A DNA stretch of 64,000 nucleotides from Candidatus Altimarinota bacterium (GTDB lineage: Bacteria; Patescibacteriota; Gracilibacteria; BD1-5; UBA2023), in assembly GCA_028277205.1 (NCBI GenBank), contig JANQGT010000004.1, forward strand, positions 40,348 through 104,347, read 5' to 3'. A model generated the notes under the pieces. That model had not been told where the DNA came from. It searched no databases and saw only the letters and a program-made list of their open reading frames with translations. A program made the translations under genes and the position numbers. The first letter of the stretch is position 1; each line of letters starts with the position of its first letter. Below, in pieces: positions 3,386 to 53,027 of the stretch.

Positions 3386-4048
3386 TTAGTTGCCGCAAGG
3401 CATGATGGGCATGTATGTAACAGATCACGATTGCGCATTCGTCACTCCGGTGGATGTCGCACAGCCAGTCGCTAAGGCGGTTCCGGCTACTGTCACCTGC
3501 GTATCGATTCCTGCTGTGGTACGGACGCCGAGCTCGAGACGACTGTCGTCTTTCGTACCTCCTGCTGATGTCGGCGTCGCCGTTCAGCCGTTATCATCAT
3601 CGAATGCCTTGGAGTCGACATTTCCCACATTTTCAAATGCGGTGGAAACCTCAAATGCTCCCTGTGTGATATTATTGTCATCCGGTGTGACATTGTAGAC
3701 ATAGCCACAGGGGACATCTGCCGGATCACTCTGAAGGGAGTGTTGTACGCACGACTCTCAGAGCTTTGGATCGCGGGGAATCCTGGAGGCGTATCGGATG
3801 ATCCCTCCCGTCCCGGTGATACCGTTTTGCGTATTGTCCCCCGGAGGATATACCGCAAAGTCCTGATAGTACTGCTCTATGGCGCTTTGCATTGCCTTGA
3901 TATCGCTGATACGCGTAGTATCGCGAGACTTTTGGATCTGCGAGGTAAATGTGGCAGTGGCTCCCGTCGCGAGAATACCGATGATGGTGATGACCACCAA
4001 AAGCTCAATGAGGGTGAAACCGGAAGATTTTGAAGAGAAGCGAAACAT
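3386..4048 (-). CDS. Type IV pilin / pseudopilin-like protein with prepilin N-terminal methylation motif
   Basis: The N-terminus is MFRFSSKSSGFTLIELLVVITIIGILA (G|FTLIE class III signal). ORF 3758..4048 continues across three TGA to TAA 3386..3388, giving 220 aa. Confidence 0.85.
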
Positions 4049-10182: not shown

Positions 10183-12294
10183 ATGATCCCGGTTTTTTCG
10201 AGATCCTCTAGCTCCTGGATAAAAAATGCCCTGCTCGTCGCCTGTATCGTGACACTCGTCGCCTGGTGAACAGTAGTCGGGATTTCCGCACTTTTCGGGA
10301 CGTTTTTCATATCGCTCAATCTCACGTACCGAGACTTCCTTTTGACAGCCGACTCATACGATCCGAGTCGAGCTACGCAGACGATCGTCATCGTCGAAAT
10401 CGATGACGAGACGCTCCAGGATCCGGAGCGCGGGGGACTCGGGCGATGGCAGGAATTTCGGCGGGAGTGGTACTCCCGAGCAGTCGAAAATCTCATCGCC
10501 GACGGCGCGGCGGTGGTGGGACTCGATGTGCTCTTATCAGAGCCGTCGCGTGATGAGGGTGACGATATCCGCCTCGAAAACACGCTCGGCATCCACAGCG
10601 ATCAAGTTGTCCTCGGTTTTTTCGCAGGCAGAGACAAACAAACAAGCATTTTCCCGCTTGAGATTTTCTCTGATGCGACCCGGAGCATAGGATTTTTCAA
10701 TCAAAAACCCCATCCAGTCAACCGAACCATCTACACCACCGAGACACACCGGATGCTCGCAAACAGTCTCTACGAGAGCTTTCCGATCGCGCTACTGCGG
10801 CGCTACTACGAGCGAGGATTTGGTCTGTCCGATACTCTCTCGGCAGCCAGAAAACACGACAGTCGCAGCTACACGCTTTTTGAAAATGACTTTGTCGCGA
10901 CATCCGTCCCGTACGCATCGTACAATTCTCGATCGTTTTTCTTTCGTCCGAAATGACCGGGCACATTCGAGCGAATTTCATTTCGCGACGTGCTCTCGCG
11001 AGACTATCCACGCTCGGTCGTAGAGGATAAAATCGTCCTCATCGGCGCCACCGCGACCGCACTGCAGGACGAGCACCCCACCGCCATCGGCAGAATCCCC
11101 GGCGTCTACATCCACGCGAGCGGACTCGCCACCATCCTCACAAAGTCATATCTTGTCCTATTGGACACCTGGATCGAGCATATTTGACTTTTGATATTTT
11201 TATTTCTCATCGCGAGTCTGGGCATCATATTGCGCAGTCTCTTGCTCTTTACGGGGATTGTCGTGCTTCTTTTGGGGGGATTTTTCTTTGGTTCGCTCGC
11301 ACTCGCAGGGCATACCGGATTTCTCATCGCGCACACGATCGAGACGCTTTTGGGCGTTCTCTTCACGCTCGTAGGTGTCAGCCTCTATCGCTATATGTAC
11401 GAGGATGCAGGACGTCGGGTACTGCAGGAGGCACTCTCGCAATACCTGGCAAAAGACCTCGTCATTCACGTCCTGGACAACTACGAATCGGTAAAACTCG
11501 GAGGAACCCGCCGGGAAGTGACGAGCTTTTTCTCGGATATCGAGGGATTTACGACCATGGCGGAGCACCGCGAACCAGAAGAACTCGTGCGTTTTCTGAG
11601 CATCTATCTCAAGGAAATGTCCGACATCATCATTGCAAAAAAATGATTTGTCAATAAATATGAGGGCGATGCGATCATGGCGCTCTGGGGAGCGTTTTCG
11701 CCGAAATCCGAAGATCCGTTTGACGCGTGTGAGGCGGCACTCCTCCAGCAGGAAGCCATCGAAGAGCTCAATGCCGGAACATTCGCCCGATTCGGACTCG
11801 CGGTCAAAACGCGAATGGGAATCAACTGCGGTTCTGCGATCGTCGGAAATATCGGAAGCCTCGGAAAGAAAATCGAGTTTACGGCGCTCGGGGACTCGGT
11901 CAACATCGCCGCGCGCCTGGAGAGCGCCAACAAAATATACAAGACAACCATCCTCATAAGCGAAGCCGTCGCCGATATCGTCCGCGATGTCATGATGCTC
12001 CGGCGTCTGGACAGGCTGCGACTGCGGGGAAAAAATCAATTTGTGCGAGTATACGAGCTAGTGGGACGTCGCTCGGAGGTAGACGAGGATACCCGGGATT
12101 TTTGTCAAAAATTCGACGAGGCGATGAGTATCTACGACGCTGGAAATTTTTCCGAGGCGGCAGAGTGGTTTGAGATCCTCCTACGTCTACGCGGCGATGA
12201 TGGACCGACCAAGCTCTTTCTCTCGCGATCGGTAGCACTGCGCGATGATCCGCCCGAATCATGGGACGGCACAGTCGATGCTTTGGAAAAATAG
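10183..12294 (+). CDS. CHASE2-sensor class III adenylate/guanylate cyclase
   Basis: Five same-frame pieces (10183.., 10342..10956, 10990..11187, 11191..11646, 11677..12294). The product has an N-terminal TM helix, a periplasmic CHASE2-like region, 3 TM helices and a cyclase core (FFSDIEGFTTMAE ... EFTALGDSVNIAARLES). It starts 3 nt after the FecR-protein stop. Confidence 0.8.
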
Positions 12295-12352: not shown

Positions 12353-12691
12353 ATGGCAGACACACAGGACGCAGCAATCGAAACCACCTCGACCGATACA
12401 TTCGAACAAGACATCGCCGAGGGCGTGGCTATAGTCGACTTTTGGGCGGAGTGGTGCGGACCCTGCCAGATGATGCTCCCCCGTCTACAGCAGGTCGCGG
12501 GACAGCTGGACGGTCGGGCGCGCGTGATGAAGCTGAATGTGGACGATGATCCCGAGATCGCACAAAATTTTCGCATCATGAGCATTCCGACGATCCTCGT
12601 CTTCAAAGATGGCAAGCCCGTCGAACAATTCGTAGGCGTACAAGAAGTCGATGCACTCGTCGCGGCAGTGGAAAAGCATCTCGCCGCGTAA
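12353..12691 (+). CDS. trxA: Thioredoxin
   Basis: WCGPC active site within VDFWAEWCGPCQMM, plus the MSIPTILVFKDGKPV motif. Confidence 0.95.
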   Translation: MADTQDAAIETTSTDTFEQDIAEGVAIVDFWAEWCGPCQMMLPRLQQVAGQLDGRARVMKLNVDDDPEIAQNFRIMSIPTILVFKDGKPVEQFVGVQEVDALVAAVEKHLAA

Positions 12692-12700
12692 TCGTCACAA

Positions 12701-13252
12701 ATGAAAATCTATCTCGCCGGCAGCATCCCAAAGGGTGCGGAGGAGGCGAAAGAGTTTGAAAACTGGCGCGTCGCGTACACGGACATTTTACAGATGGCGA
12801 GTCCGCAGATCGAGACGATAGACCCCGACGAGCATACGATGCATGAGGGAGATCAATTTCTGGTATTCGGATGTGACTGCGCGGATATCGCCTGCGCCGA
12901 TCTGGTCGTCGTCAATGCCGAGATGCGCATGGGTGTCGGGACGAGTCAGGAGATGTGCGTGGCAAAATACTATGAAAAACCGGTCATCGTCGTGCTGCCG
13001 CGCGATACCTATCATCGCCGATCGCATGTCCGATTTCGAAAGTGAAGTGAACCGGTAGCGGACTGGATCCATCCGTTTCTCTTCGGATTTTCCGATGTCA
13101 TCGTCGCCTCGCGCGAGCATCTGCCCGAAGCACTGAAAGCCATCAAAACACGACCGACGAAGACAATGGCGATCGTTGAGGCAGCGGCACAGTTTGCAAA
13201 GACCGGGGGGAGTACCGCCCCCCGGGACGCGGCTCCCGTATTGATCGGGTAG
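12701..13252 (+). CDS. Nucleoside 2-deoxyribosyltransferase-like protein
   Basis: MKIYLAGSI..., ADLVVVNAE..GVGTSQEMCVAKYYEKPVIVV match the family pattern. One TGA is read through to TAG 13250..13252. Confidence 0.5.
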
Positions 13253-13435: not shown

Positions 13436-16000
13436 CTATCTCGCCACCCGATCTACCGAAAACTCACGTAAAAACTCAGCAAGCAACGGGGGCGGACGAC
13501 GAATGGCGCGCGTCGAGTAGTCGACGACGACCCCGACAGACAGCGCCTCGTACGACGTCTCGCCGCGGATATACGTCCGGCTCTCGACGAGCGGCGCACT
13601 CTCACCAAAGAGCGACCCATCCACGATCAGCCGATTGGAGGTATCGCCGGGAGCCCGGATCTGTCCCGAAAGCGCGAGGTAGACCCCCGCGATACGAGAG
13701 ACGGCGGGATCGATGATGATATCTCCCCGCTTGACGATAAACGCATAGCTCGAGTCTTGGCTGTTTTCGATATCTCCATCTATGTACAGATCGCCATCCT
13801 CGACGATGATAGTGCGGACATCTGAAAGCGTCATACCCTGCAGCAAGAGATCGCCGCTCGAGTGAATCCGGATATTTTCGCGATCCGCGAGAGCGGGCAA
13901 CAGCGTATCAAACTGGCTCGCAGAGCCGATGACACTCGCAGGCGAAGAGGACGCTCCGACGGTATTTGTACTGCGCTCAAATTCATTTTGCTCCTGCGAG
14001 ATCTCGGCACTGATGCGATACTGCGTATCCGCATCGACGACTCCCGCATGCGAGAGCGACGAGAGATTTTTTCCGAGTCCGAAATTACCCGTACGCGCGG
14101 CGACACTCGTAAAGTTTCCACTCTGAAGTCAATCAATGAATTGCTGCGTCGAGACATTGCCCGGATCAAAATTGAGGTATCACACGTCGTATCCCGCCTC
14201 ACGTGCGAGGTATCCGCCACCGCCGTTCGTACTCGCGATAGCACTGCGAGCGACTCGCACCTGGATCGGCTCCTGCAGGTATCCCAGCTCGAGGAAAAAC
14301 GAGCTCGAATTCGTATCGCGATAGGGATCCGAGAGAGAGGCGGTATTTCCCCGCATGCTCTCGACACCCGATTCATTACCGGAAAAGAGATCGACCCGGA
14401 ACGCCGGAGTGCTCATCGTGATCGTCTTGCAGTAGTCGGTGTCGGTATTTTGTATAGCGCCGTCATTGTCCCGCAGGCAGGCGAGCCGGCTTTGGAGAGC
14501 AAATGGAAACGATCGAGCAAATGTGAGCGTCGCTCCGGAGCGAAATACCGGCACGTCATTCCCGACGATCACCCGGAAATCCGAGAGATCCGAGGCGCCC
14601 GATCCCGGATGCGTCAGCAGAAAATCTCATGGAAACTGTCCGGGATTTGTAGAAAATGTGAGCGAACACGACGACGAACATCCCGGGTGAGCGGCATCGC
14701 ATTCCTCGCCGTGACGCGACTGGACGACGCCGTCTCCGCAGTAGGTACAGTCACTGCGGCACTGCGGGAGCAATCCCGGCTCGCACGCCTCTCCGGTCTG
14801 GACGATACCATCTCCGCAAAATCCTCATCCGCTTCATCATCCGAGTGCGGTCAGCAAACCTCCTCCCGGATTCGAAGCATAGGTAGCGCTACAGTTTCCG
14901 CCGGCGGGACTGCCGTTACATGCCCAGGTATACTGAATAGTTCCGTTTGAGCCGGGTGGATTTTCGATGAAATCATGGACAGCGGTCGATCCGGCAGCAC
15001 AGAGCCCGGGTGTCGCACTGGTGATCGGCGAGGAAATAAGACCGGTCGTAAATCCGGCGAGACACTGCGCGCCTCCACCGCCCGGAGAGTACGTCGCCGT
15101 GCACGATCCGCCGACGGCGCTGCCATTACATGCCCAGGTGTACACCGTGGAGCCTCCGGCGGAGTTGACCGTGAAATTTTGGACGGGACCGGTCTGACAG
15201 AGTCCGCCACTGGCAGCGGTGAGCGTCACCGGGACCGAGCCAACCGTATTTCCCGGAATGCACTGAGCACTCGTAGTCGTCGTCGTACAGGTCGCGGAGC
15301 ACCCGGAGCCAGCCACGCCATTTTGCGCACCGAGGTCGCACTGCTCCTGCGGAGAGTCTAGGACACCGTCTCCGCACCATGCGGTGTAGAGATTTACACA
15401 CTCGACATGCCGGCGGGGAGGTGGGATATTTGCATATTTTCGTCAAAAGAATGTATACGGCTGACCATTATTGAGAATCGTGAGAAGCGTCCTTCCATCC
15501 GAAAGAGTGCTCTCGGATGCACGCCAATATCGAAACTCTCCGAAACCGGAAACATTATTTTCTCCAAACGAAGGAATAGAATACCGAAGATCATACACTA
15601 TACGTCCTGCTATATCATTTCGATTTGCGGGATGCGTGGTAAAGCGCAATCCACGCACATTGAAAATGAGTATTTCATTCACACCCGGAGGAATAAAATT
15701 TGAGCTCGGCTTTGTGTCGGTCGACACCTGAAAATTCGTATCAATATTTCCTCCGACATTTTGGAGGATCGCATTCGAGTATATGTAGGAAAAAACGATC
15801 TCCGGGGAGCTGCCACCAGTACGGCGAAAAAAATCCCAGCTGTCAAATCGTTCTCCCACGTACACCCGATCAGATATGCACACCTCACACGCGTGTCCGC
15901 CCGTATCAAATCCGCTACATGATGCATCGACGAAAGCGATGCCGGAAAACATGAATACTACTGCTGCTAAAAATCGAGCGGAGTTCCTGACGTATTTCAT
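13436..16000 (-). CDS. Large secreted protein (854 aa) with cysteine-rich CGDG(V/I)(V/L)Q..EECD repeats and tandem YTWACNGS modules
   Basis: ORFs 15443..16000, 14837..15316, 14180..14572 and 13436..13900 are all in one frame, and the gaps contain only TGA. Signal peptide MKYVRNSARFLAAVVFMFSGIAFVDA. The repeats resemble the Myxococcus-type cysteine-rich repeat. Confidence 0.75.
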
Positions 16001-16184: not shown

Positions 16185-19100
16185 TTAGAATGTCGTTCCT
16201 CCTCATCCCGCTGGCGCTTCTCCCGGACTCACACCGGCTTTAGGAGCTGTTGCTCCGCCTGCTTCTCATTGTGACGGCAGATCCGATGGTGGGTCCGATG
16301 GTGGGTCCGATGGCGGGGAGTCCGATTCACCTGAGGCGACTTGTTTGGTTTCGTCATCGAGATCTATCCCTCTGGCAACTCCGAGTCCGAAATTTCGTCC
16401 CACCGCCCGAAGCGTATACGGCTGTACCGTCAGTCCTTTTTGGATGGGGACGATCTCATTTCGGATTTGAAAATTCGAGATCAGGAGCGCGTCATTCGCG
16501 CAGTCTCCCCACTTCGCGTAGGCGATGTCAAAGGAGATCGTATCGTCTGAAGTATTTTTCATCGCAGCGATGAGTGCCTCTCTCTCCATACCCGTCAACT
16601 GTACGAGCGCCGCTATGAAGTGATCCGGAAGCGCGTCGACGAGTGTCTCGCGGACGGTGGCATCGTCAATGGGGTGCATAAACGGTCCGTCTGCTCCCGG
16701 GAGCTTCGCAAGCTCGATGGATCCGGATATCGGCATCATACCGCGATGGACGAGCTCTCCACCCTCTACCATGCTCGATACTGGAAAGGCAATGGCATTT
16801 TCATTCGAAAGCGTCGTGGACTCGGTATAGGTCGCATCTTTCGCCGCTTCGTTGAATGCATCTTGTGCTTCCTGGATAACACTCTCAGGAATTCCCTGCT
16901 TTGCTAAATACTCGCGAAATACGCGCTGGCGCTGATAGGCTTTATTTGTATGTCCGAGCGATGTATCGAATGTCGCGACACTCATCTGCAGGAGAATATA
17001 CTGCTGCGCCAGATTTTCATTCATGTCCTCCGGTACATGTCGGAGTGGATTTTCTCCCTCCAGAATCCTATCCAGTCGAGCGATGTTTGCCCGTCCGAGC
17101 TGACTGACAATGCGCTGAATCGCGTCAGTATGCTCCTCCTGCGTTACACCGATTTTTCCTCGATCATTGAGGCTGTGCATATAGCGAGAGTAGACAGACT
17201 CGAGGATAGCTCGTTTGAGGGTATCGGCATTCTGATCTGCCTCTATCGCTGTGAAGGCAGCGCTCACGCCATCCGCACCGGCAAATGCTCTATACTGTCA
17301 TCTTCTTCCGTTCACGAGCTGCATGAATCGATCCCATGCATTCCCCAGTTTGCTCGGATTATTTGCCTGTGCGACGATGAGATCCTGGAGATCTCCATCG
17401 CGTCCACCCCGGTCGATATGCTCACGCAGTGCAGATCGGATCGTGCGATAGTCATCATTATCGAGGATTTCTTTCGTCTCGAGTGTCTGCATCGCCTGCG
17501 TCTCCGAGAGCGTCGGAGCCGTGACGATTTTCCTGTCTGACTCATCCCAGCTGTCGGGGATACCCTGATGATCCGACCGATCATAGACAAATGCTCCGCG
17601 TCCGTCCGTACGCGCCCGCTCGATATACAGGACACTGCGACGATATTCGCCGTCATACATCGTCGCGACGAAGAGTTGTTCTTCTTCGGCGCCGGTGATA
17701 TAGTACCCATCCTTACCCTCGTATATCTGCACGCCTGTACTCGCTGGTGCACGATCTATAGCACCGATTTCATCAAATGGGAAATAGTACGCCTGGGTTC
17801 CGCCAATCTCTACGTAGTTGTGCGCTCGCATCTCAAATGGCTTTGTCGTGAGTCCCGCCTCGATCTCCTGGTGGCGCGTGCTCTGCATACGCTGGTAAAT
17901 CGCGTCCGTCTGCTCTATATTCAGCGCTCCTGCGACGATGAGCGCTACCGTCCCGATACCGCCCGTCGCGAGTATGGACGCGAGTCCGACTCCGAATCCG
18001 ACACCGATATTTACGCCCGAGAGACGCAGTCCCTCGTTTTCCTCTGTCAGATTCGCTTTGTACCATGCGGTGATGGCGAGACCGATACGTTTATACAGTG
18101 CTTCTTTTTCCTCTTGACTTCCACTGCTATCGACCCCGATATCATGTGCGACTCTTTTCATGAGTTCGATGATTTCCTTAAATCCATCCTTATCCTCATC
18201 CGAGACTGATACACCCTCGAAGTTGTCTCTTTCATCATCCGCGAGATTTATAGCGATTTGCTCCATCACCCCTCCAAATGCCGCAGACTGCCGCTCGATA
18301 GCGGGATTTTTTTCATGAGCCATGAATGAAACACCCCCTCCAACATCAAATATGCTCGCCGCCGCACTCACCGTCACTCGCGCATCGGAAGGTAAATCTT
18401 TGAAATACGACTGCTCATCTCCCCAAGACCACTGCGCCAGATCCTGAGAGATCACGGCGAATGGAATAAAATTCATGAGACCAGCCGTACCATGTCCTCC
18501 TTCCCACAGTTCCCAGCTTTTCGAAACGCCGATTCCCGGTATGTTATTGAAAAAACCAATTTGGAGGCTGTCAAACCAGAGATCCAACTGCTCAATATCT
18601 ATGGATGCACCAGCACTCACTCCGTCCGGTCAAAACATGACTCCGGCGAATTCCAAAAAGAGTATAGAGAAGAATTTCGTTTGCTCGGCTTCGCTCGATA
18701 TTTTATCAAGGATCTCTCTTACATTTTGATGTTCTCCAGCAGTTTGCTTGAACCTATTCCATTTATCTTCTCCGATTTTGTTGATTATTTCATCCGCGAT
18801 CTGACCATCGCGAATCTTCATCTCCTCATGATACTTTCCCGATCGTCCCGCCTCCATCGCCGCGATACCGCCGAGTGCCGCGTGCGTCAGGTAGTAGCGC
18901 GCAAATTTTGTGCATGCCCGCTCCCTCTTGCTTGCATCTTGCCAGTCACTCACCTGAACGTCCGCCCGATTCATCAATGCTACAAACTCATCGACACTCA
19001 TCCGGATGAGTCGATCATACACGGCATTTTCCGTACCGGCGGCGTGATCGTCTCCGTCCGAGAGATCGCCATCGCGATCGAAATCACAGAGATCTCGCAC

Positions 19101-21713
19101 CATCCTGGAGTAGTTTGTATATCTTCCTTCCGCTTCTTTATCGCGGACGACACCCAGGAGAAAGAGATCAAACGCAATGACCTGCACCTCATCTCCATGC
19201 CAAAAATTATCATTGAAATTAAGTTTGCTCAATAAAAATGCTTTTGTCTCATCATAGGTAGCCCGACGAAATGTATTGTACAGTTCGCGTACTTGCTGGA
19301 GCGACATGTCCCGGATCGCGTCAAATGCTTCGCGATTTCCGCTCCAGTCCAGCCACTCGACCTCTCCCGTCTCGACGCTGTCGATACTGGGGATTTCTGT
19401 GCGTGGCGCATCCGAGAGAGATCTCATACGATCGAGCGCCGATCACTCCACCGGCACAGAGCGAAATCTCGATACAGCTTCTCGGCTCGGTCACGGGGTA
19501 GGTCGTGTAGGTATCGATGGGGCGACAGATGCAGGGGGTGTGGGTCGTACCGCCTCGGCTCCGGTCTGCGCTCCGGATTTCGCGGCATATGCCGCGAAAA
19601 GGGCTTTGTAAGTTATTTCTCCGGGCGCGCCGTCAACAGATCCGGCTGTTCCCCGCTGTGCCGTCTGGAATCTGCGAACGGCATTTTTCGTATTCGTACC
19701 AAAAACTCCATCAATCTTTCAATCCGCCGGAGGAAATCCGAGCGCCGTAAGCATCGTCTGGACAGCTTTGATATAGGATCTGCTTCTGATGAGTTCGGAA
19801 TACCTTGCGCTCTCTACCGTCTGCAGGAAAGAGCGATATTCTTGGATTTTGGGGTTGACTGGTGCAGCTTCGGCTCGCCCTCCCTGTACAGGATCCTCGC
19901 TATCACCATTATGTCTATCGATACCACCAAATATTCCGGAAATTGCTGCAGTCGGAATGCCCATTCCTAAAAGCGTTTCTCTAAAAGTAATCCTGTTTGC
20001 TCGATAATTCGGGTCGCTCTGAGAGAGTCTCCGAAGGGTGCTATCAGACAGAGGTAGATCAATAAGTTTCCATCAATAATTGGGAATGCGAAATTGAAGA
20101 ACTATATTCAATTTGTTGTTGTCTTCTCTTTCTACTTCTGCGAATGTCTCGTCTTGTGCAATCCTCTCTGGTATCTCAAACCTCGCCAGATCCGCCGCGA
20201 GTGCTTGCTCGAATGTCGATTTTTCTGTTTCGGTTAGCTCGCCAGATCCGGGAGCCGCAGGCACCTCTGACGCAAAAAGCCCTTCGATGTGATCAATAGT
20301 CGCCTGTCGCGTGATCGGTCCTATCACGCCGTCAATATCATTTCCTGAAAGATTCACGCGAGATTGCATGTCCCGAACTTTGGCTCTTGTTGAATTTTGA
20401 TACACCTCTAAAATCGTCGTAAGCGTCGAAACAAGATTCTCTCGTCAATCTTTTGCTGCATTGAGCGCATCCTCGATATAGCGCTTGGTCAGGGAATTAT
20501 CTGTATCATTTTCGATACTCGATCTGCTCACTCGGATAGCAGATCACGCATCTCGTTCCCGCTCCCATCTTCTATGTATCTCTAGAGCACTACGGACGAT
20601 CGTCGTCCGACTATCATTATCCATAGTATTTCTATTCCGAACAAGTCTCCTCTGCAATCCCTCTATCGCCTGCATGTCTGCTACGGTCGCATAGGGTTGA
20701 CGCTGGATACCATCTCTTCACATCTCGTACAGACCCGAGAGATAGGCAAATGTGCTTTCATTTGAGGCTACGACAACTCTCGCATCTATGTCGCTGGATC
20801 CCATCTTCGAATAGTCGGGAATTTCTCCGGGAGTCACTCCTGCCGGTGGCCTACCCACCCCCGTCCCTGTGCCCGGCATCGTCCATGTCTGTTCATTTTC
20901 TATGTCCCTTGCGAGATAGTACAGCATATTTGAATACGTATCCCTATCCAATCTTCCACTCGGAACGAAAGGCGCTGCAGCTTGTTCCGTAGTCATTCTT
21001 CTGGCATTCCTATGCAGATTTTGCTGCAGTGCCGATATACTCTCTTGTGATGGATTTGGGGCTGTGACGATACCATAAATAGCCCTGATATTTTCTCTTC
21101 GTGCACTCCCGTCTCTCGCATTATCGGTAGCGAGCGAAAGTATGGCCTGTATATTATGACGGACGTGCGTATCGTCGACTATGAGATCTATCGCATCTCC
21201 GACATCCAAAGTGGACTCGGGTATTTTATTTATATCAATCTTGATAATGTGCTTGAAAATCTCTTCTTGTTTTTTCTTGATAATCTTCCAATCAATGAAG
21301 TACTGAGCAATCTGATTCTTTGCGGCTTGTTCGGCATTTTCCGACGCTTCGGATATTTTATCACCATCCCCATCATAAACACGTGCACGTGCCTGGGTAC
21401 CTCCCGATGAGTCGGACGAATCGGCTATGCGCACGAGAGCATCGAGGATTCTTTCGCCTGCTCGCGGTTCGACAGCCTGTGACCATGATTGCACATCTAT
21501 CGCCGCCTGAAGTGCGCCTACTTTTTTTCTCACTTCATTTGTGATATTTTGTCGATCCACATCCATCGCCTCGAGAAGTCTCCGCGCTTCAGCAGAGGAG
21601 ATTTTTTTGCCCTCTTCACTATCATCAGCGGTGATCTGTTCAAACACTCTCTCTATATGAGTCTGGTCTCCTCTTTCCGGACCATCCATTCTATTATTGT
21701 TCCTTGTTGCCAT
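16185..21713 (-). CDS. Giant protein (1842 aa) with no signal peptide, two peptidoglycan-binding-like repeats and a Gly-zipper hydrophobic segment
   Basis: ORFs 20718..21713, 20073..20405, 19719..19964, 18630..19427, 17298..18620 and 16266..17267 share one minus frame. I translated every gap and found only TGA (11 in total), with no TAA or TAG until TAA 16185..16187. Confidence 0.8.
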
Positions 21714-21769
21714 ATTTGTGTATAAAAAAAGTACAGCGCCTCCAGATTACCCTATATTTTTCACGAATG

Positions 21770-21796
21770 CAAAAAAAGAAAGAGTCTTCTCTTTCT
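21770..21796 (-). terminator. Rho-independent terminator between the small Gly/Arg-rich gene and the giant gene
   Basis: AGAAAGAG-loop-CTCTTTCT forms an 8-bp stem with T-runs on both strands (T7 on the minus strand). Confidence 0.6.
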
Positions 21797-21843
21797 TTTT
21801 CTTTCGAGCCTGCAAATACTAGATATCAGACTCGAGATGAGTA

Positions 21844-22326
21844 CTAGAGTCTATGAGATGCTCAGATTGTGAATCCGGATAGTCCTTTTCCTGATTGGGG
21901 TCATCCTCTTCTTTCTTGACTCAGAGATCGTCTTAGTGTCTCCTCCAATTGACGCAGATCAACTCTGTCGGCAGCGCCACCGAATCGAGGGACAGTATTG
22001 AAGCGAGGATCACCTCAAAGATTTCCGGTCGCTCTCTGAGAAAATCCTCCGTAGGGTTCTCCTCGACCATCACGACGATTGAGTTGTTGGGCGGTCTGCA
22101 TCATCCCATCCACCCCGAGACTTCCCCGAGTCTCGACACCGAGCGCCGCACGCTCTGCGTCCATCGCTTCTCGGAGGGCGCTCTGTGCTTTGGTGCGACC
22201 CTCTATTCCCGCGCCATCAAGTCGATTGTTCACCTCTGCATTTCCCGCACGTAGTCCGCTCAGACGATCTGCGGGGGATGCTGATTGCTCGAGAGCTGCC
22301 GCGCTCTCCGGTCCTCCTGTTGCCAT
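21844..22326 (-). CDS. Hypothetical Gly/Arg/Ala-rich, probably disordered protein (160 aa)
   Basis: ORF 22015..22464 extends across three TGA to TAG 21844..21846. I chose the start at MATGGPES (22326); an upstream start at 22377 is possible. Confidence 0.4.
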
Positions 22327-22548
22327 AAAAATGATATAAAGAGTAGAAATGCGATCGAAGCAATATCGATACGACATGACTACTCTATCAGAGTTTTTTT
22401 CATACTGCAAATTTTTTGTCAAATCTGCTTTCTCATTTTCCACGCGAGAAGCGTGGAGATGCATATCCTGACGATCAAAGCGGTCAAATCAAGACAACTG
22501 CCGCTTGATAATTTTGCCGTGTGCTATCGCGATAGAAAAGAAGTATCC

Positions 22549-23262
22549 CTATGCCCGACGTCGCAATACCAGTACCAGCACAGCGGCGAGTACGAGCGCC
22601 GCGAGCAAGATCGCGAGCATCTCGGGACCGGTCTCCGGTCGCGTCACATCCTCTGGTGTCGGCTCCGGTGTGGGCGTCGCAGCGACCTCTACCTCCGCCT
22701 GAAAGACGACACACTCATTGTGCACGCGGCTCGCGCTCTCGGTAGCGTCCTCCATGATGACGGAGTGCGTGAGCGGAAAGACCATCATGGCGACGGGCTG
22801 TCCGTCCTCTACGTCTGTCTCGGTGAGTGTATAGTTTGCGGTCGGCTCGCTCTCAAACAGTGTAACCGTCTCTCCCGCAAGCAGCTCAAACTCCTGATCT
22901 CCCTCGCGTGTCAGCGACTCGACCCATATGAGATCCGAGCCAAAATTCCAAAATGCGTCCGGATCCTCGGGATTCGCGATGATGCGCGTCTCACCCGAGA
23001 GCGGATGGATCGTCGGAAAGTCCTGAAGTCCCTCGTAGATGATCTGACTCTCATCCATGACATTCGTCCAGGTATCGAAAAAGTCCGTCTTTCGCTCTCC
23101 GACCTCCCAGCTGCCACCCTCAAAACACTGACTGCACGAATACGGAGTAAAATACTCGGCATCACAGGCGATCTCGGGAAACTGTCCGACCTGAGCGCTC
23201 GCGACCGAGACGAGCGAGAGAGCAGCAACGATCCCAGCTCCGGAGAGAAGTACTGTACGCAT
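22549..23262 (-). CDS. Secreted protein with LPXTG-like (RPETG) C-terminal sorting signal
   Basis: The signal peptide is MRTVLLSGAGIVAALSLVSVASA. The C-terminus is PETG-PE + LAILLAALVLAAVLVLVL + RRRA, matching the tripartite layout of sortase substrates. Confidence 0.65.
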   Translation of the reverse strand: MRTVLLSGAGIVAALSLVSVASAQVGQFPEIACDAEYFTPYSCSQCFEGGSWEVGERKTDFFDTWTNVMDESQIIYEGLQDFPTIHPLSGETRIIANPEDPDAFWNFGSDLIWVESLTREGDQEFELLAGETVTLFESEPTANYTLTETDVEDGQPVAMMVFPLTHSVIMEDATESASRVHNECVVFQAEVEVAATPTPEPTPEDVTRPETGPEMLAILLAALVLAAVLVLVLRRRA

Positions 23263-23332
23263 AAAGAGAAATTAAGAGAAAATAAACCTCAGGCGACATT
23301 GTAGCGCGAGTGTCAGCATTTGTCAAAAATCT

Positions 23333-23360
23333 TTGCGCGAAAATCAAAACCGTTTATACT
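23333..23360 (+). promoter_or_regulatory. Candidate sigma70-type promoter for frr
   Basis: TTGCGC-16 nt-TATACT, about 35 nt upstream of the frr ATG. Confidence 0.3.
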
Positions 23361-23393
23361 TTTCACGCGCATTTTTATCCTCAAAATCACTCT

Positions 23394-23939
23394 ATGCCAG
23401 CCTCCATCGACGCCGATATCGAGCGTGTGCTTACTCATTTGAAAAACGAATTTGCAAAGCTGCAGACCGGTCGCGCCTCTCCCGCACTCGTGGAGGATAT
23501 GCGCGTGAGCGCCTACGGCGCGAGCCAGCCGCTCAGAAATGTCGCGAGTGTCAGCACTCTGGATCAGCAGACACTCTCCATTTCTCCGTGGGACAAATCC
23601 CTCCTCCGAGACATCGCCGGCGCCATCACCGCCTCGGGACTCGGGCTCAATCCGCAGGACAACGGCGAGACCATCATGCTGAAAATCCCCGCACTGACAG
23701 AAGAGCGCCGTCGCGAGCTCGTAAAATATGCGAAAAAACTCGCGGAAGAAGCGAAAGTCGGAATACGATCGGTGCGTCAGGATGCGATAAAACAGATAAA
23801 AGCACGCGAGACGGCGAAAGAGATCGGCGAAGATGCGGCGCGAGATGAGGAGACGGCGATACAAAAGAAAATCGACGAGACAGGAAAAACCATCGACGAC
23901 ATGACAAAAAAGAAAGAGGAGGAAATCATGAAAGTGTAG
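23394..23939 (+). CDS. frr: Ribosome recycling factor
   Basis: LKNEFAKLQTGRASPALVEDMRVSAYG...LNPQDNGETIMLKIPALTEERRRELVK. Confidence 0.95.
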   Translation: MPASIDADIERVLTHLKNEFAKLQTGRASPALVEDMRVSAYGASQPLRNVASVSTLDQQTLSISPWDKSLLRDIAGAITASGLGLNPQDNGETIMLKIPALTEERRRELVKYAKKLAEEAKVGIRSVRQDAIKQIKARETAKEIGEDAARDEETAIQKKIDETGKTIDDMTKKKEEEIMKV

Positions 23940-24137
23940 ACTTCGGTGAAAGAAGAAATTGACAAGAAAGAAGAGAATATAATAATGCGCAAAGCACTCT
24001 CGTCTGATTTTCATACGCTGTCGTATGGAGTGCACACAGAGTCTCGCACGAAAATTCATCGAACGACATGCGTGCGAGATCGTAGGGCATTTTGGAGTTT
24101 AGTTGGCGTTTTCACGATCCATTCCGACCGATACGAC

Positions 24138-27621: not shown

Positions 27622-28220
27622 AACAATCACAAGTATCGAGAGTCGCTTCCTATTGCATTGCGCCAATATCATCTACAGGCGCTGCAAATCTCCTTCGCTG
27701 CACTGGATCAGGAACTCAACCTCAGTCTGTCGCATCGGAGTTTGTCGCATAGTAGTTTCATACAGGTCCCTCAAAAACTGCAGCATCACCCAGGTCCGGA
27801 TGTGTTCAAAAACACAGAATTTTTGCCTTAACGTCTAGCCCTCAGACTATCACATCAGCTCATATTTCCAAAGTCTTGCCAACAGAAGGAGCATAGACGC
27901 TGGAGCGAGAATCGAGCCGAGTTTCGTACAACCAAACCTCTCTCTCAAGGGTTTTCCTCTGGCTTTCCGTGCACCTTTTTTCGGCACCCGTATATCGTCA
28001 CCCTCTTCACCCTCTTCACCCGTCTCATCACGCACCAGACTCGACATACGAGTATCCGAATTTCTCAGGCATAATTTTTAGAGGAAATTATTAAAAATTG
28101 CACGATATGATTTTACTGGAAGCATCCCACAAAAGCAAGCAGAAAACATTGACAAATTCTGAAAATGCCTCGAAGCACGAACGCAAACGCATCACCTATC
28201 GAACCTGAAAAAATCGCCGC

Positions 28221-29135
28221 CTAATCCTCCACCCCGGGATACCGCCGAAACCACGTAAGCTGCCGCTTCGCGTAGTGGCGAGTTTTTTTCTGGATGAGGG
28301 TTTTCGCGTTGTCGAGAGAGCATTTTCCCTGCAGCGCATCCAGGATCTCCCGGTATCCGATCGTATCAAATCCGGGGGCGTCCGGAGCGTGTCCCACCGA
28401 AAGCAGCGTGCGAATCTCGTCGACGAGTCACTCCTCCATCATCGCCTCGACTCGCCGGTCGATACGGGCATACAGTGCCTCCCGATCGCCGTCGTACGGC
28501 GTGTAAAAAAACGTATCGTACACCGGCGTTTGCGATCGGGTCAGCGATCGTCTGCTGATGCCGTACACCTCCAGGAGCTCCAGCGCGCGGATGACGTACG
28601 GATAGCTGCCGGGGTCGATCGTCCGCGCCGTCTCGGGATCGAGGGCGTGGAGTCTGTACCAGAGTGCGAGATTTCCCTCGGTGATGCGCATGGTCTCGAG
28701 GGTGTTTCGATATTCGGGATTTGGCGGAGTCGCCGGCAGCGAAGAATCATACACGACACTGTCGATATAGAGTCCCGTCCCCCCGCAGAGGATGGGGATT
28801 TTTTCGTACTGTCGAGCATGTCGAATCTCATAGAGTGCATCATCCCGATATCGTCCTGCCGAGTAGCGCTCCGACATCGAGAGAAATGATATGAGCAAAT
28901 GCGGCACTCCGCGCATTTCCTCGGGTCGGATGACGCCCGTCCCGATGACGAGATCGCGATACAGCTGCCGAGAGTCCGCACCGATGATGACACCTCCGAC
29001 ATACTCGGCGATATCGAGACTCGCATCAGTCTTTCCGGATGACGTCGGACCGTATACGACGATGAGTTTTCGGTCGCGCGTCCCCTCCGAGAGCCATCGA
29101 TCCAGACGAGAGAATGGGGGATTTTCACTTGGCAT
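28221..29135 (-). CDS. miaA: tRNA dimethylallyltransferase
   Basis: IVVYGPTSSGKTDASL P-loop, and the C-terminal YAKRQLTWFRR follows one read-through TGA. The stop is TAG 28221..28223. Confidence 0.9.
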
Positions 29136-29187
29136 TTTCGGATTTTCGAGTAAGGTTCGATTCCAAATACTACGAAATTTTTCGCCG

Positions 29188-29760
29188 ATGCCAACGCATG
29201 ATGATCTCCTCGGGTCCGCCGAGTGCGTGTTTGAGGGTGTGCTCTGGGATGTATATCAGTGGGAGCAGGAGTTGTTTGACGGATCGTTTTCGACATTTGA
29301 GACCATAGCGCGGAGGATGGGGACCGTCGATATCATCGTGGTTGACGGTGATCGCATCGGCATCACCTATCAGGAGCAGCCGAAAAAGGGGAAATTTTAT
29401 TCGCTGTATGGCGGACGTCTGGAGCCGGGCGAGTCCCCCGAAGAAGGAGCGCGACGAGAGCTGTTGGAAGAGTCGGGGTATGAGGCGTGAGAGCTGGAGT
29501 TGTATAATACCTATAGCTTTTCATCCAGCTGTCGGTGGGAAAATCCGTTTTTCATCGCGCGAGATCTGCGAAAAATCGCCGAGCCAACTCCCGATGCAGG
29601 CGAGCGTATCCAGGCGGTGTGGCTCGACTTCGACGAATTTAGCGATATGATCATCCGGGAAAAAATCCGCACGAATACAAAATTTGCCCTCGAACTCGCA
29701 CGCGCGAAAATCGACGGGGCGTTTAGTCAAGTCCGCAATCATATCCTCTGACACTCATAG
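29188..29760 (+). CDS. NUDIX hydrolase
   Basis: Nudix box GGRLEPGESPEEGARRELLEESG. Two TGA are read through. Confidence 0.8.
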
Positions 29761-36425: not shown

Positions 36426-37853
36426 ATGAACACCCCGGCAAGCATACTCGAAAAACCGGTATTTTCCGGTATATCCCGAAAATTATTTGATACGCGCGAC
36501 GATGTGTCGTATCGCGACGAGCTCTCACCCGGTCTCGATGAGTCGGTCGTCCGGCAAATCTCGGCGGCAAACGATGAGCCGGAATGGATGCTGGCACATC
36601 GCCTGGAGTCACTTCGGATTTTTCATGAAAAGCCGCTTCCGACGTGGGGTCCCGATCTCTCCGGTCTCGATCTCGGTGCTATCTGCTATCATGCCCGCGC
36701 CAGAGAAACCCGGGCAAATACGACCAGCTGGGATGACGTTCCGGAGAAAATCCGCGCGACATTCGACCGGCTCGGCATCCCAGAGGCAGAGCGCCGCATC
36801 CTGGCGGGTGTCGGCGCGCAGTACGACAGCGAGGCGGTGTACCATTCTCTCAAACAAGAGCTGCGAGACAAGGGCGTGATTTTCACGGATATGAGCATCG
36901 CCCTGCGAGAGCATGAAGAACTGGTACGACGATATTTCATGCGGTGCGTGCCGATGCACGATCACAAATTTGCGGCGCTCCATGGAGCGGTATGGAGCGG
37001 CGGGACATTTCTCTACGTGCCCGCGGGAGTGGTCATCGGCGAGCCTCTGCAGGCGTATTTTCGTATGAATGCGCGCGCCGGCGGACAATTCGAGCATACC
37101 CTCATCATCGCGGAAAAAGACTCGAGCGTCCACTACATCGAGGGATGCAGCGCCCCGAAATACGGCACGAGCTCGCTGCACGCGGGTCTAGTGGAGATCT
37201 TCGTCTGAGAGCGTGCGCACGTCCGCTACTCATCGGTGGAAAACTGGAGCGCGGATACGTACAATCTGAATACGAAACGAGCGCTCGTGGCAGACGACGC
37301 CTCGATAGAATGGGTGGGAGGAAATCTCGGCTCGGGCGTGACGATGCTCTATCCGTGCTCGGTGCTAAGGGGAGACCGATCGCGATCCAGCCATATCGGC
37401 ATCGCCGTCGCAAATGCTGGACAGCACACGGACACAGGCGCAAAGGTCATCCATATCGGACGCGATACGCGCTCGCGAGTGCTTTCAAAATCGCTCTCCA
37501 AAGCCGGAGGTATCTCGCTGTACCGCGGACTCCTGGATATAAAGCCGACTGCCGAAAACGCGGTCAGTGAAGTCCAGTGCGACGGACTGCTCCTGGACGA
37601 CATATCGCAAAATAATGCCTATCCCGATATCCGCGTACAAAACGCCACGGCGACAGTCGCACACGAGGCAACGGCGGGACGTCTGTCGGAGGAGATCCTG
37701 TTTTATCTGCAGAGTCGGGGACTCTCCGAGCTGCAGGCGCGCACGATGATCGTAAATGGCTTTCTGAGTCCCATCGTCTCCGAATTACCGCTTGAATACG
37801 CGGCGGAAATGAATATCCTCATCGCCATGGAAATGGAAGAGAGCGTCGTGTAG
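36426..37853 (+). CDS. sufB: Fe-S cluster assembly scaffold SufB
   Basis: ORFs 36426..37208 and 37236..37853 are in frame across TGA. Motifs: HYIEGCSAP, GRDTRSRVLSKS, HEATAGRLSEE. Confidence 0.9.
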
Positions 37854-37890
37854 CGCTCGTGCCTTTACTCCTGCATTCAGCTGACGTACA

Positions 37891-38346
37891 ATGGAAGACA
37901 TTCATCCCATCAAAGATTTCGTATTTCCCCCCATCGTCGATCTGCCGCCGTGAGCCTGGATGATCCTGGTGATCGTGATAGTATGTGTCGTGATCTCGTC
38001 AGCGCGGTGGCTTTTCCCGCTGCGTGCCCGCATCCTGACGACGAGTGATTTCATCCCGCTGTCCGTCATCCGCGAGCGCTATCTGGCAAAGCTGGCACGC
38101 ATACCCGACGATCATGTGCAAATGCTCGAGTCCGTACACCGTCTGGTACGCGCCTATCTCGCGGAGAGTCGGCACTATCCGAGTGCGCTGTCGCGCACCG
38201 GACGGGAGATGCGCGTCCTGTCCCAGAGCCAGTCGGTTCGCCGATTTGAAGAAGTGTATACCGCAAGTCGATTTGACGATACCCCTCTCGACGAGGAGGG
38301 GAGACGACGGTTTCGGCGGATGGCGGAGGATATCATCCTCCAGTAG
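37891..38346 (+). CDS. DUF4381-like small membrane protein
   Basis: MEDIHPIKDFVFPPIVDLPP(TGA)AWMILVIVIVCVV, the family-typical N-terminus plus one TM helix. Confidence 0.45.
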
Positions 38347-38512
38347 ACGGTATCAATCGGAAAACCCCATCAGAAGCGAATCCACTGTAGAATCGTGCAG
38401 TATATCCTATTTGAGGCATATACCGAGATTCGTATCTATCACCGCATTCATACGAAAATCGCAGTCCTCTCGGCATGAGAAACGGAAGGGCGTGATGAAT
38501 TCGAGGGGCAAT

Positions 38513-40598: not shown

Positions 40599-42404
40599 TT
40601 ATTTCCCTCCTTTCTTGCGTTCATGCTCCTTTAGATACTTCTTTCGCAGACGGATATTCTCGGGGGTGATCTCCACATACTCGTCGTCGGCGATGTAGTC
40701 GAGCGCGTCCTCCAGCGTCATTTTTCTGATGGGGGTCAGACGCACCGCCTCGTCCGATCCGGACGCGCGCATATTCGTCAGTTGTTTTGCTTTCATGGGA
40801 TTGACGACGAGATCGCTTCATTTCAGGTGTTCGCCGATGATCATCCCCTCGTAGACCTCCGTCCCCGGCTCGATGAAAAGCGGTCCACGCTCCTCGAGAT
40901 TCCAGAGTGCGTACGCCGTCGACGTCCCCGTAAATCCGCTGATGAGCGAGCCGACTTCGCGCTTTGCGATGTCGCCGCGGTACTCGTCGTATCGCGCAAA
41001 TGAGCTGTACATGATCCCCTCTCCCTTTGTCTCGATGGTGAATACCGTCCGAAATCCGAGCAGTCCCCGCGTCGGCACCTCGAATCGCAGGGTCGTATTC
41101 ACACCATCCGATTGCATGTCTTGTACGATTCCCTTGCGTTTTCCCAGGTGCTCCATGACCGTCCCGCTCATCGCCTCGGGGACGATGATCGTCACGGACT
41201 CTATCGGCTCCAGGCGCTTGTGATTTTCCTCATGATAGATCACCTGCGGCGATCCGACCTGCAGCTCGTAGCCCTCGCGCCGCATTCCCTCGATGAGTAC
41301 CGACAGGTGCAGCTCTCCGCGTCCCGAGACCATGTATGTATTTTCCCCTGCATCAAAATCAACCTGCAGTCCCACATTCATCTCGAGCTCGCGCTCCAGG
41401 CGTTCGCGGATATTTCGCGATGTTACGTATTTTCCCTCCTTTCCCGCGAATGGCGAGTCATTGACCGTGAATTCCATTTTCAGTGTCGGCGGATCGATGG
41501 TGATGGCGGGCAGCGGCTCGGCATCCGGATCCGTCGTGATCGTCTCTCCTACGAAAATATCTGCGATCCCCGCGATCGTCACGATGTCGCCGGGAGCCGC
41601 CTCGGAAGTCTCCATTTTTTTGAGTCCCAGAGAGGTGAGCACCTTTGAGATTTTTGCATTTCTGCGATTGCCGTCATTGTCGATGACGGTGACCTGTTGT
41701 CCGGTTTTAGCGCTTCATTCGTACACGCGTCCGATCCCCATTCGCCCCAAAAAATTGTCATACGCGAGACTCGCGATCTGCATCCGGAGGGGCTTTTCCA
41801 CGTCGTTTGGTGCCTCGGGGACGTGTGCGAGGATCGTCTCAAACAGCGGCGAAATATCCCTTCGTTCGTCGGTGATCTCCCGCACGGCGATGCCGTCTCT
41901 CGCGATCGCGTATACGATGGGGAAATCAAGCTGCTCGTCTGTCGCCCCGAGCTCCGCAAAAAGATCGAATACTTCATTGATCACCTCATCGGGACGGGCG
42001 GTTGGTTTGTCGAGTTTATTGACCACGACGATCGGTCTGAGTCCGAGAGCGAGTGCTTTTCGCAGGACAAATTTCGTCTGAGGCATCGGACCCTCGTACG
42101 CATCCACGATCAGGAGTGCCCCATCCACCATCCGCAGTACGCGCTCCACCTCGGATCCAAAGTCCGCGTGCCCGGGAGTATCCACGATATTGATCTTTGT
42201 CTCGGCGTGCATGACCGCGGTATTTTTCGCGTAGATGGTGATACCGCGCTCGCGCTCCTGTGCGTCCGAATCCATGACGCAGATGTCCACCTGCTCGTTT
42301 TCACGAAATACGCCGCTTTGTTTCAGCAGGGCGTCGACGAGTGTCGTCTTTCCGTGGTCGACGTGGGCGATGATGGCGATATTTCGGATGGGGGTCGCGG
42401 GCAT
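40599..42404 (-). CDS. typA: Translational GTPase TypA/BipA
   Basis: [29 protein letters not shown]. Three same-frame ORFs join across two TGA. Confidence 0.95.
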
Positions 42405-42683
42405 TTTGGGAGAAAAATTATTGACAGGAGAGGGAGTATACGAATTTCATGAGAGTTTCAAAAGTTTTAGCACGACAGGGGTTTTTGCATACTCGCCTTG
42501 GATCAATTCGTACCTTTGAATTTTCAATCACATTCTCAACTCCATATATATACAGTGAATAATTCCAGCCGGTGGCAGAGGGCTTTGCGGAGGAGGTATG
42601 GACGATACTTCGTCCCGATTATTATGTGCTGGTCATACGCATCGGCAAAGTTCAACGCAAAGCCATTGTATAGAAAACCGATA

Positions 42684-42770
42684 CTTGCAAAACCCGCAAT
42701 ATTTCGTAGTATCGCCTTTTCGTTTTCAGCCCGCCCGTCATGAAATTCGCGCTCGTCCAGGGGAGTATGA
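42684..42770 (+). repeat. 87-bp direct repeat, left copy (promoter + 5'UTR + first 10 codons of the FMN-reductase gene, ending in a dead stub)
   Basis: It matches 43424..43510 with 4 mismatches. It contains TTGCAA-16-TAGTAT (42685..42712) and ATGAAATTCGCGCTCGTCCAGGGGAGTATGA. The stub reads MKFALVQGSMSHKI then stop. Confidence 0.85.
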
Positions 42771-42825
42771 GTCACAAAATATAATCTTTCATCATAGATG
42801 ATTTATGATAGAATGAATATGGTCA

Positions 42826-43422
42826 ATGTTGAAAGGTATTGACTGGGAAAGAGTAGTAATAGTCTGTGCCTTTATCTCATCAGCTGCGGCAGCTGCGTCT
42901 GCATATCTTTCCTTGGAAAATACAAAAATCACAATCAAAAAGTGGGAAAATGAAAGAGAGAAAGATCGTCCGTATTTTAGCGTACAGAATGCAATAATCG
43001 AAGGATCAGATCAGCAATGTTATAGGATAATTATCCCTTGTCATAATTTTGGTACCATCCCTGCACTGGATATTTCATGGAAAATATTTCTCATCGGTCA
43101 TGATTTTCGGTCTTGTATTCAAGATATCGAATCGTGTATCTATAAAAGCAATATTGCTCCAACGATGCCTTTCAAGCTTGTACTTGATAATTTTCAATTT
43201 CAAATATCCGAATCAGTAGTTCTTATTCATTGATTTTTTCTTGTACTGCAAATACAGTATACATCCTTTTTTCATGAGAAACAGTATTTACAAGAAATAT
43301 ATCTCAAATGGAACGGGGGACGAAAAGAAAATATAATGATGAATTTAGCAAACGTATCATACGAGGAGGGCATCAAGATAGATCGGTACCTGAAAAACAG
43401 AAGCCTACAGCAGACAGGATAA
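42826..43422 (+). CDS. Hypothetical single-pass membrane protein (198 aa) encoded on the AT-rich insert
   Basis: ORF 42826..43233 continues through one TGA to TAA 43420..43422, which is 1 nt before the right repeat. N-terminal TM helix VVIVCAFISSAAAAASAYLSL. Confidence 0.5.
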
Positions 43423-43423
43423 C

Positions 43424-43510
43424 CTTGCAAAACCCGCAATATTTCGTAGTATCGCCTTTTCGTCTTCAGCCTATCCGTCATGAAATTCGCGCTCGTCCAG
43501 GGGAGTATGA
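43424..43510 (+). repeat. 87-bp direct repeat, right copy (functional promoter and start of the FMN-reductase gene)
   Basis: See the left copy. TTGCAA-16-TAGTAT lies at 43425..43452. Confidence 0.85.
43425..43452 (+). promoter_or_regulatory. Candidate promoter of the FMN-reductase gene (duplicated at 42685..42712)
   Basis: TTGCAA-16 nt-TAGTAT, 28 nt upstream of ATG 43480. Confidence 0.4.
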
Positions 43511-52745: not shown

Positions 52746-52750
52746 GGTGT

Positions 52751-53017: not shown

Positions 53018-53027
53018 GCTCTTTGGA

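Follow-up and report, generated by a model that had tools for sequence, protein, structure and literature searches.

Here we describe a giant gene of 1,842 codons plus a TAA stop (16185..21713, minus strand; 11 in-frame UGA codons read as glycine) in a 64-kb window of Candidatus Altimarinota DNA, the window being the whole stretch of 64,000 nucleotides analysed on contig JANQGT010000004.1, and we show that it is one genuine protein-coding gene of a Gracilibacteria-class bacterium belonging to the candidate phyla radiation (CPR). Profile comparison and gene order place its predicted product in an unnamed and fast-evolving family of proteins of 1,000-1,500 amino acids (aa), as a divergent member that is enlarged at the N-terminus. 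Across Gracilibacteria this family occupies a fixed slot, directly upstream of a Sec-exported Cys-rich protein, usually downstream of a small protein with a tail resembling a sortase signal, and near frr-mfd. We infer, rather than demonstrate, the function of the giant protein: with a probability of roughly 0.55, it works alongside its two exported neighbours at the cell envelope.

Read on the minus strand from 21713 to 16185, the frame comprises 1,843 codons including the terminal TAA at 16185-16187. TGA occurs 11 times (codons 332, 390, 423, 547, 665, 741, 757, 1028, 1472, 1816 and 1837), and reading all 1,842 codons revealed no internal TAA or TAG, against 62 expected from the regional base composition (probability of zero ~1.5e-27) and against 37 and 39 in the remaining two minus-strand frames. 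The standard code divides the region into six open reading frames (ORFs; 20718-21713, 20073-20405, 19719-19964, 18630-19427, 17298-18620 and 16266-17267), all of which lie in the giant frame, and under a codon log-likelihood model fitted to the window's other long genes the joined frame scores best of the six possible frames in 17 of 18 consecutive 100-codon windows. An earlier sequence-only reading of this DNA had proposed one continuous frame interrupted by 11 UGA codons, with nothing but TGA in the gaps between the six ORFs, and both proposals are borne out. The same six-way division, together with the public listing by NCBI of 17298-18620 as a 440-aa protein under code 11 (P0001), could instead be taken to mean that the region is a set of separate ORFs or a decaying pseudogene, with a frame that looks open only because TGA is counted as sense. 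We give this almost no credence, and regard it as refuted, in view of the complete lack of TAA and TAG, the collinearity of homologues across the UGA codons and the location of UGA on conserved Gly positions; in addition, recoding is genome-wide and the UGA density of the gene (6.0 per 1,000 codons) is typical of the genes of the window.

Several lines of evidence establish that the whole window is to be read with genetic code 25, in which UGA specifies Gly. With only TAA and TAG as stops, 91% of the window is covered by non-overlapping ORFs, and the standard code breaks it up into short, fragmentary ORFs. At 54638-54716 (plus strand) lies a tRNA (anticodon UCA) with the pairs G1-C72, C2-G71 and G3-C70 and discriminator U73, which form the bacterial glycine identity set; ARAGORN calls it tRNA-SeC from the UCA anticodon only. 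Because its acceptor stem and U73 are of the tRNA-Gly type, we assign it as the code-25 tRNA-Gly that decodes UGA. In the neighbouring gene mfd, all 46 standard-code bacterial homologues have Gly opposite TGA codons 702 and 793, and no TGA position is matched by Trp. Within the giant gene itself, UGA 1028 falls on an invariant Gly column (Gly in 5 of 5 homologues), and the counterpart of UGA 665 in the wall-binding domain of phiKZ gp144 is a Gly. Code 25 is already known for Gracilibacteria and Absconditabacteria (PMC11452946), and the recoding is routine for the lineage rather than new. As in other code-25 genes of these groups, in-frame UGA is read by tRNA-Gly(UCA), without any difference that we could see, and standard-code gene callers fragment the giant gene just as they do other long ones. 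Among 185,579 species genomes, the best relatives of Mfd are metagenome-assembled genomes (MAGs) of Gracilibacteria and Patescibacteria at no more than 50% identity, and the source organism therefore appears to be a fairly deep-branching member of the class. The earlier proposal of a CPR cell using table 25 thus agrees with the tRNA, with the Mfd alignment and with the taxonomy of the Mfd relatives.

The closest relatives of the giant protein were recovered by an exhaustive HMMER search of 1.84 billion representatives, using its longest UGA-free piece (residues 1029-1471) as query, which returned four proteins (P0002-P0005) in addition to P0001, the giant's own piece. All four reside in TGA-recoded loci. 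P0002 (1,143 aa) is collinear with residues 766-1831 of the giant (blastp E 9e-109), crossing UGA codons 1028, 1472 and 1816, and this collinearity rules out the view that the pieces are unrelated separate proteins. Its contig (locus L081; JGI, 327 kb) has an ORF upstream in frame, separated by a single TGA, whose product matches giant residues 36-145. The orthologue at L081 would thus be a protein of ~1,364 aa, homologous to the giant at both ends and much shorter in the middle. Because of this arrangement, residues ~146-765 (19419..21278, minus strand; ~620 aa carrying 7 of the 11 UGA codons) can be assigned as a lineage-specific insertion confined to the giant among family members: the corresponding region is ~165 aa long in the L081 orthologue and is missing from the other homologues. 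The relatives at the three remaining loci, L084, L085 and L086, are code-11 fragments of ORFs of 1,000-1,200 aa that contain 2-4 in-frame TGA codons. A word-index homology search with the full giant protein had returned no relatives, though the exhaustive search later found some; profile searches with the alignments termed A1 and A2 recovered only fragments already known, and neither a scan of GTDB with the giant protein itself nor a metagenome pattern scan with A2 returned any relative.

A wider family emerged from gene order. In a synteny sample of 80 Mfd-anchored loci from Gracilibacteria MAGs, a minus-strand ORF of 1,000-1,500 aa, which we term X, recurs in the order frr, homologue of the 237-aa protein encoded upstream of the giant, X, homologue of the Cys-rich protein encoded downstream of it; this order is shared by the window, L002, L003, L015, L017, L018 and others, and the pairing of X with the Cys-rich protein is also found in L084 and L086. 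The X proteins constitute a BLAST-connected family of ten. A tblastn search of the giant against the 80 loci gave nothing significant, and HMMER profiles run against the ORFs of these loci likewise gave no significant match and left the X family unlinked to that of the giant. The homology was detected only by hhalign with the ten-sequence alignment: compared with the five-sequence giant alignment, it gave a probability of 98.2% and an E value of 5.3e-14 over 729 collinear columns, against an E value of 0.022 over 21 columns for a reversed-sequence control. Three further features unite the members. None of the 15 has a hydrophobic N-terminus as judged by hydropathy; in 13 of the 15 the most hydrophobic 19-mer lies at an equivalent mid-protein position; and a Cys-x-Asn motif is invariant in all 14 members that have the C-terminus, ~60-100 residues ahead of a Pro/Thr/Gly-rich tail. 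Because of the hhalign match, the synteny and the common Cys-x-Asn motif, tail and hydrophobic segment, we regard the giant as the local, enlarged representative of this family, whose database clusters bear only the name 'hypothetical protein'. A search for orthologues and for synteny in other Gracilibacteria, as the sequence-only reading had suggested, has thereby yielded both.

The members share an architecture that begins with a hydrophilic N-terminus containing an amphipathic helix and continues through a helical region, a beta core rich in Gly, a hydrophobic segment and a Cys-x-Asn domain to a disordered Pro/Thr/Gly-rich tail. In the giant, the conserved hydrophilic N-terminal region (aa 36-145; 21279..21608, minus strand) contains the amphipathic motif ...SSAEARRLLEAM... 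and aligns with residues 43-163 of the L081 orthologue (blastp E 3e-4), with a comparable motif in L084. Downstream of the insertion, the conserved family module (aa 766-1790; 16344..19418, minus strand), defined by blastp to P0002 and hhalign to the X family, runs from a helical region through a Gly-rich beta core and the hydrophobic segment to a C-terminal alpha/beta domain. It includes the core domain covered by alignment A1 (aa 997-1365; 17619..18725, minus strand), which contains UGA 1028; the internal hydrophobic Gly-rich segment (aa 1232-1266; 17916..18020, minus strand), which has a Kyte-Doolittle value of 2.06, is Gly-zipper-like and is a candidate membrane anchor; and the sequence WGDCAND (16491..16511, minus strand), which bears the Cys-x-Asn motif that is invariant in the 14 aligned members. 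The protein ends in a low-complexity Pro/Ser/Gly/Thr-rich tail (aa 1791-1842; 16188..16343, minus strand), of which every member has a counterpart.

No Sec-type signal peptide was found in the giant, as judged by hydropathy only: the best 12-residue hydropathy within its first 50 residues is -0.01, compared with 2.3-2.5 in its two neighbours with clear signal peptides. The earlier description of a hydrophilic N-terminus lacking both a signal peptide and a transmembrane helix is therefore accurate for the N-terminus; the hydrophobic segment at aa 1232-1266 had gone unmentioned. Nor does the protein bear a sortase sorting signal, since its C-terminus (...APAGGGGTTF) has no hydrophobic or basic tail.

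The only recognizable domain of the giant is a full PG_binding_1 domain (Pfam PF01471; aa 646-705; 19599..19778, minus strand), which scores 54.9 bits (E 9.8e-15) against a cut-off of 23 bits, covers profile positions 3-57 of 57 and spans UGA codon 665. Peptidoglycan binding by this domain is putative. A partial, half-domain match (aa 436-471; 20301..20408, minus strand) covers profile positions 24-56 of 57 and, scored alone, reaches 18.7 bits (E 0.002), below the cut-off. Searches of Pfam, NCBIfam, PHROGs and the PDB returned no other domain, searches of the PDB with profiles A1, A2 and A5 gave no match outside the PG-binding domain, and self-BLAST detected no internal repeats. Within the PG_binding_1 stretch, to which the PDB, PHROG and NCBIfam matches are confined, the matches comprise the endolysin wall-binding module of phiKZ gp144, SleB, a Streptomyces Zn DD-peptidase and VgrG3 (PDB 4nso), together with endolysin families in PHROG and PG_bind_siph/SleB in NCBIfam. 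With the endolysin, SleB and Zn DD-peptidase modules the giant shares the DG-x-FG-x-x-T core; unlike the endolysin and SleB modules, it carries the domain in mid-protein, with no fused catalytic domain and no export signal. Both PG-binding elements sit inside the lineage-specific insertion, and no homologue tested has a Pfam match to PG_binding_1. The sequence-only reading had placed one close match at ~19599..19778, exactly where Pfam finds it, and a weaker one at ~20277..20384, which recurs here below threshold at a slightly shifted position; its description of peptidoglycan-binding repeats in the plural was an overstatement for one full domain and one half-domain.

The insertion also has a distinct base composition. 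Guanine-plus-cytosine (GC) content is 0.469 for 19900-21713 and 0.526 for the rest of the gene, in line with the earlier impression that the 5' third is AT-richer, and GC content at third codon positions (GC3) is 0.42-0.44 over the first 765 codons and 0.44 in the insertion, compared with 0.55 in the conserved module. Overall the gene has a GC3 of 0.50, and the other long genes of the window all lie between 0.59 and 0.70. These values fit a rapidly evolving, weakly codon-adapted gene whose N-terminal half has recently grown, and alone they are too little to claim horizontal transfer. The lowest-GC stretch of the window lies elsewhere, at 42001-44000 (0.43-0.47 against a mean of 0.535).

Low GC3 is nonetheless among the points that could suggest derivation from a phage or mobile element, with the giant as a tape-measure, ejection or conjugation protein within an island. 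Its Gly-rich hydrophobic segment and wall-binding module are reminiscent of some tape-measure and ejection proteins, with which it also shares great length and a largely helical character, and the L081 orthologue adjoins an HK97-type major capsid gene. Unlike such proteins, the giant has no tie to phages in sequence, profile or context and is chromosomal, syntenic and lineage-wide: PHROG matches cover the PG-binding domain only, tblastn gave no match in 50,697 phage genomes, a scan of IMG/VR with A1 gave none either, no integrase, tail or portal genes lie nearby, the flanking genes are thioredoxin, frr and mfd, and the slot is occupied in many Gracilibacteria genomes. We consider a phage origin very improbable and, on the strength of the negative PHROG, phage-genome and IMG/VR results and the housekeeping flanks, largely refuted; the earlier suggestion of a tape-measure-like protein falls with it. 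The capsid gene at L081 (7643-9142, minus strand; Phage_capsid_4, E 2e-9) is preceded by a gene for a 191-aa acidic, scaffold-like protein, no further phage gene appeared within 10 kb of it, and the two could represent a prophage remnant or an encapsulin-like pair.

We re-annotated the neighbourhood of the giant with code 25 and codon scoring. The flanking order is a CHASE2 adenylate cyclase, a thioredoxin and a small gene, all on the plus strand, then a run of minus-strand genes, then frr and mfd on the plus strand; the minus-strand genes encode, in order, an 854-aa Cys-rich protein, the giant, a doubtful ORF and a 237-aa protein. The downstream partner of 854 aa (13436..16000, minus strand) has a signal peptide and Cys-rich acidic repeats (TIGR02232, 34.8 bits), followed by a conserved C-terminal domain of ~430 aa that ends in NYSTRA..PPPLL and has no match in Pfam, NCBIfam or the PDB. 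Its homologues lie directly downstream of those of the giant at L086 (E 1e-83), L084, L002, L003, L015, L017 and L018, and at least 10 loci of Gracilibacteria keep it next to the X family. The upstream member of 237 aa (22549..23262, minus strand) starts with a signal peptide and ends in RPETG, a hydrophobic stretch and RRRA, a look-alike of a sortase-type sorting signal with a weak NPXTG match (E 0.083); its homologues adjoin frr in 25 related loci. The giant therefore does sit among surface-protein genes, as the sequence-only reading had held.

In the envelope reading, the giant and its exported neighbours would form part of a cell-surface or host-contact apparatus of an epibiotic cell, in which the internal hydrophobic segment would hold the giant at the envelope and, in its own lineage, the insertion would add a tether to peptidoglycan, either the cell's own or that of a host. 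Pointing in this direction are the signal peptides on both neighbours, the PG_binding_1 match above the Pfam cut-off, the hydrophobic segment in 13 of 15 members, and a weak lytic-transglycosylase motif of the SLT type in the divergent neighbour of the L084 homologue. Giant membrane or surface proteins of 1,392-4,163 aa have moreover been described in a sister lineage, in the CPR predator Vampirococcus lugosii (PMC8080830). Like the present giant, these are very large, lineage-specific products of a code-25 CPR genome with an inferred surface or host-contact role; they differ in carrying WD40, PKD, integrin and fibronectin domains and in being predicted to be membrane-localised (PMC8080830), whereas the present family has no N-terminal signal and no known domain save the acquired PG_binding_1.

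A number of points weigh against placement at the envelope. Hydropathy indicates no Sec signal in any member, and the location of the protein is an inferred one. The PG-binding module lies N-terminal to the giant's only hydrophobic segment, so that an ordinary signal-anchor with its N-terminus inside would leave the module in the cytoplasm, and the charges flanking the segment do not give its orientation. PG_binding_1 is missing from all other members tested and therefore cannot define the function of the family; its fold is a generic three-helix bundle, and wall binding is putative. Gene adjacency is no proof of shared function. Structure prediction gives no fold-level support: AlphaFold2 (AF2) models of the P0002 module (8-row alignment) and of the giant's C-terminal domain (3 rows), both built on shallow alignments, have a mean pLDDT of ~50 and provide only a rough secondary-structure outline (helical, beta, helical, alpha/beta), with no confident structure for the hydrophobic segment, and Foldseek found no match to these models in the PDB below E 0.2.

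The same evidence can be arranged around a protein that never meets the wall, namely a cytoplasmic or membrane-peripheral scaffold that, for example, organises how the co-encoded surface proteins are exported or anchored, its PG_binding_1-like bundle serving as a protein-protein module. The universal lack of signal peptides is most simply explained by a cytoplasmic N-terminal region of 1,200 aa, the protein is long, helical and acidic, and the PG_binding_1 fold also serves as the non-wall-binding prodomain of matrix metalloproteases. On the other hand, the domain of the giant scores well over the Pfam cut-off and has endolysin and SleB wall-binding domains as its best relatives, Pro/Thr-rich tails are typical of wall-spanning linkers, and the partners of the cluster are exported. 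We consider a scaffold unlikely.

The step that the sequence-only reading took from the lack of a Sec signal to non-classical export or injection may be correct, with an internal anchor, or a cytoplasmic location in which the three-helix fold has been reused, as the competing explanations. Carried further, this leads to an attack or effector protein that would depart by a non-Sec route and be delivered to the surface or the interior of a host or prey cell, where the PG-binding domain would target the prey wall and the Gly-rich hydrophobic segment would insert into the prey membrane. Gracilibacteria are thought to be host-dependent (PMC11452946). All 15 members lack a signal peptide that the neighbours possess, the hydrophobic segment is Gly-zipper-like, the disordered C-terminal tail could act as a secretion signal, and PG-binding domains occur in phage lysins and in VgrG3 of the type VI secretion system (T6SS). 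The giant indeed resembles LXG toxins of the type VII secretion system (T7SS) and VgrG3-type toxins in its hydrophilic helical N-terminus without a Sec signal, and VgrG3 has the PG_binding_1 domain in common with it (PDB 4nso). Unlike them, it has no LXG, WXG, VgrG, Rhs, PAAR or toxin domain in Pfam or NCBIfam, no hydrolase or known secretion-signal domain in Pfam, PHROG or NCBIfam, and no secretion-system or immunity genes nearby; its conserved part is the C-terminal 1,000 aa, the opposite of what is seen in polymorphic toxins; the gene is syntenic and seemingly vertical beside frr-mfd, like a structural core component; and only the giant among the members has the PG-binding domain. The effector role put forward in the sequence-only reading has thus gained no positive evidence, and we judge it quite unlikely.

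A bolder and, in our estimation, improbable reading would put the X family and its Cys-rich partner at the core of a cell-contact apparatus peculiar to Gracilibacteria and so far unrecognised, in which a protein of 1,000-1,800 aa would be exported without a Sec signal, perhaps by means of the conserved N-terminal helix or the disordered C-terminal tail, and would engage the wall or membrane of the host. Were this so, the acquired PG-binding domain of the giant would be the first visible clue to the target.

Other features of the region can be noted. Upstream of the giant gene lies an AT-rich gap of 835 bp (21714-22548) that includes the doubtful minus-strand ORF (21844-22464), with a codon score of ~0 and no homologues. 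An A/T-rich hairpin followed by a T-run at ~21765-21800 (aagaaagag..ctctttcttttttt) could act as a terminator between the giant gene and the gene upstream, and a GGAGG is found ~27 nt before the giant ATG, too far for a classical Shine-Dalgarno sequence. Elsewhere in the window are a type IV pilin whose N-terminus has the canonical GFTLIE (3386-4048, minus strand) and the CHASE2-adenylate cyclase (10183-12294, plus strand; Pfam E 2e-37 and 4e-19), both in keeping with the surface and signalling functions that have been described in Gracilibacteria. At L084, 2025-9920 on the minus strand encodes three large signal-less proteins of 672, 1,275 and 621 aa, divergent from the L084 homologue of the giant; the 672-aa protein carries the weak SLT motif (ES...GVMQ, E 0.003), the C-terminal segments of the 1,275- and 621-aa proteins are Gly-rich and hydrophobic, and a type IV pilin gene lies next to them. 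The UCA-anticodon tRNA is followed by a tRNA-His (54895-54971), and each of the two is overlapped by spurious long ORFs. Reading TGA as sense also opens long Arg/Ser-rich antisense or off-frame ORFs at 12429-13199, 22809-24059, 28196-29524, 36679-38370 and 52220-53599, which, with negative codon scores and many TGA codons, are artefacts and not genes.

By itself, a long ORF is no surprise in a CPR genome, and what is new here is a domain-augmented variant within an uncharacterised Gracilibacteria family; there is as yet no evidence of a new mechanism. Standard-code gene calling shreds this family in public databases and renders it invisible to annotation. Once reassembled, it proves to be lineage-wide, syntenic and fast-diverging, without a known domain and linked to two exported surface proteins, and one of its members has gained a wall-binding domain although the whole family lacks an export signal. 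If the giant is cytoplasmic, it would be an ordinary hypothetical protein whose domain name misleads; if it is exported, it would point to a new export route in monoderm CPR bacteria. Together these findings give a concrete, testable way into the question of how uncultivated Gracilibacteria construct their surface or make contact with their hosts.

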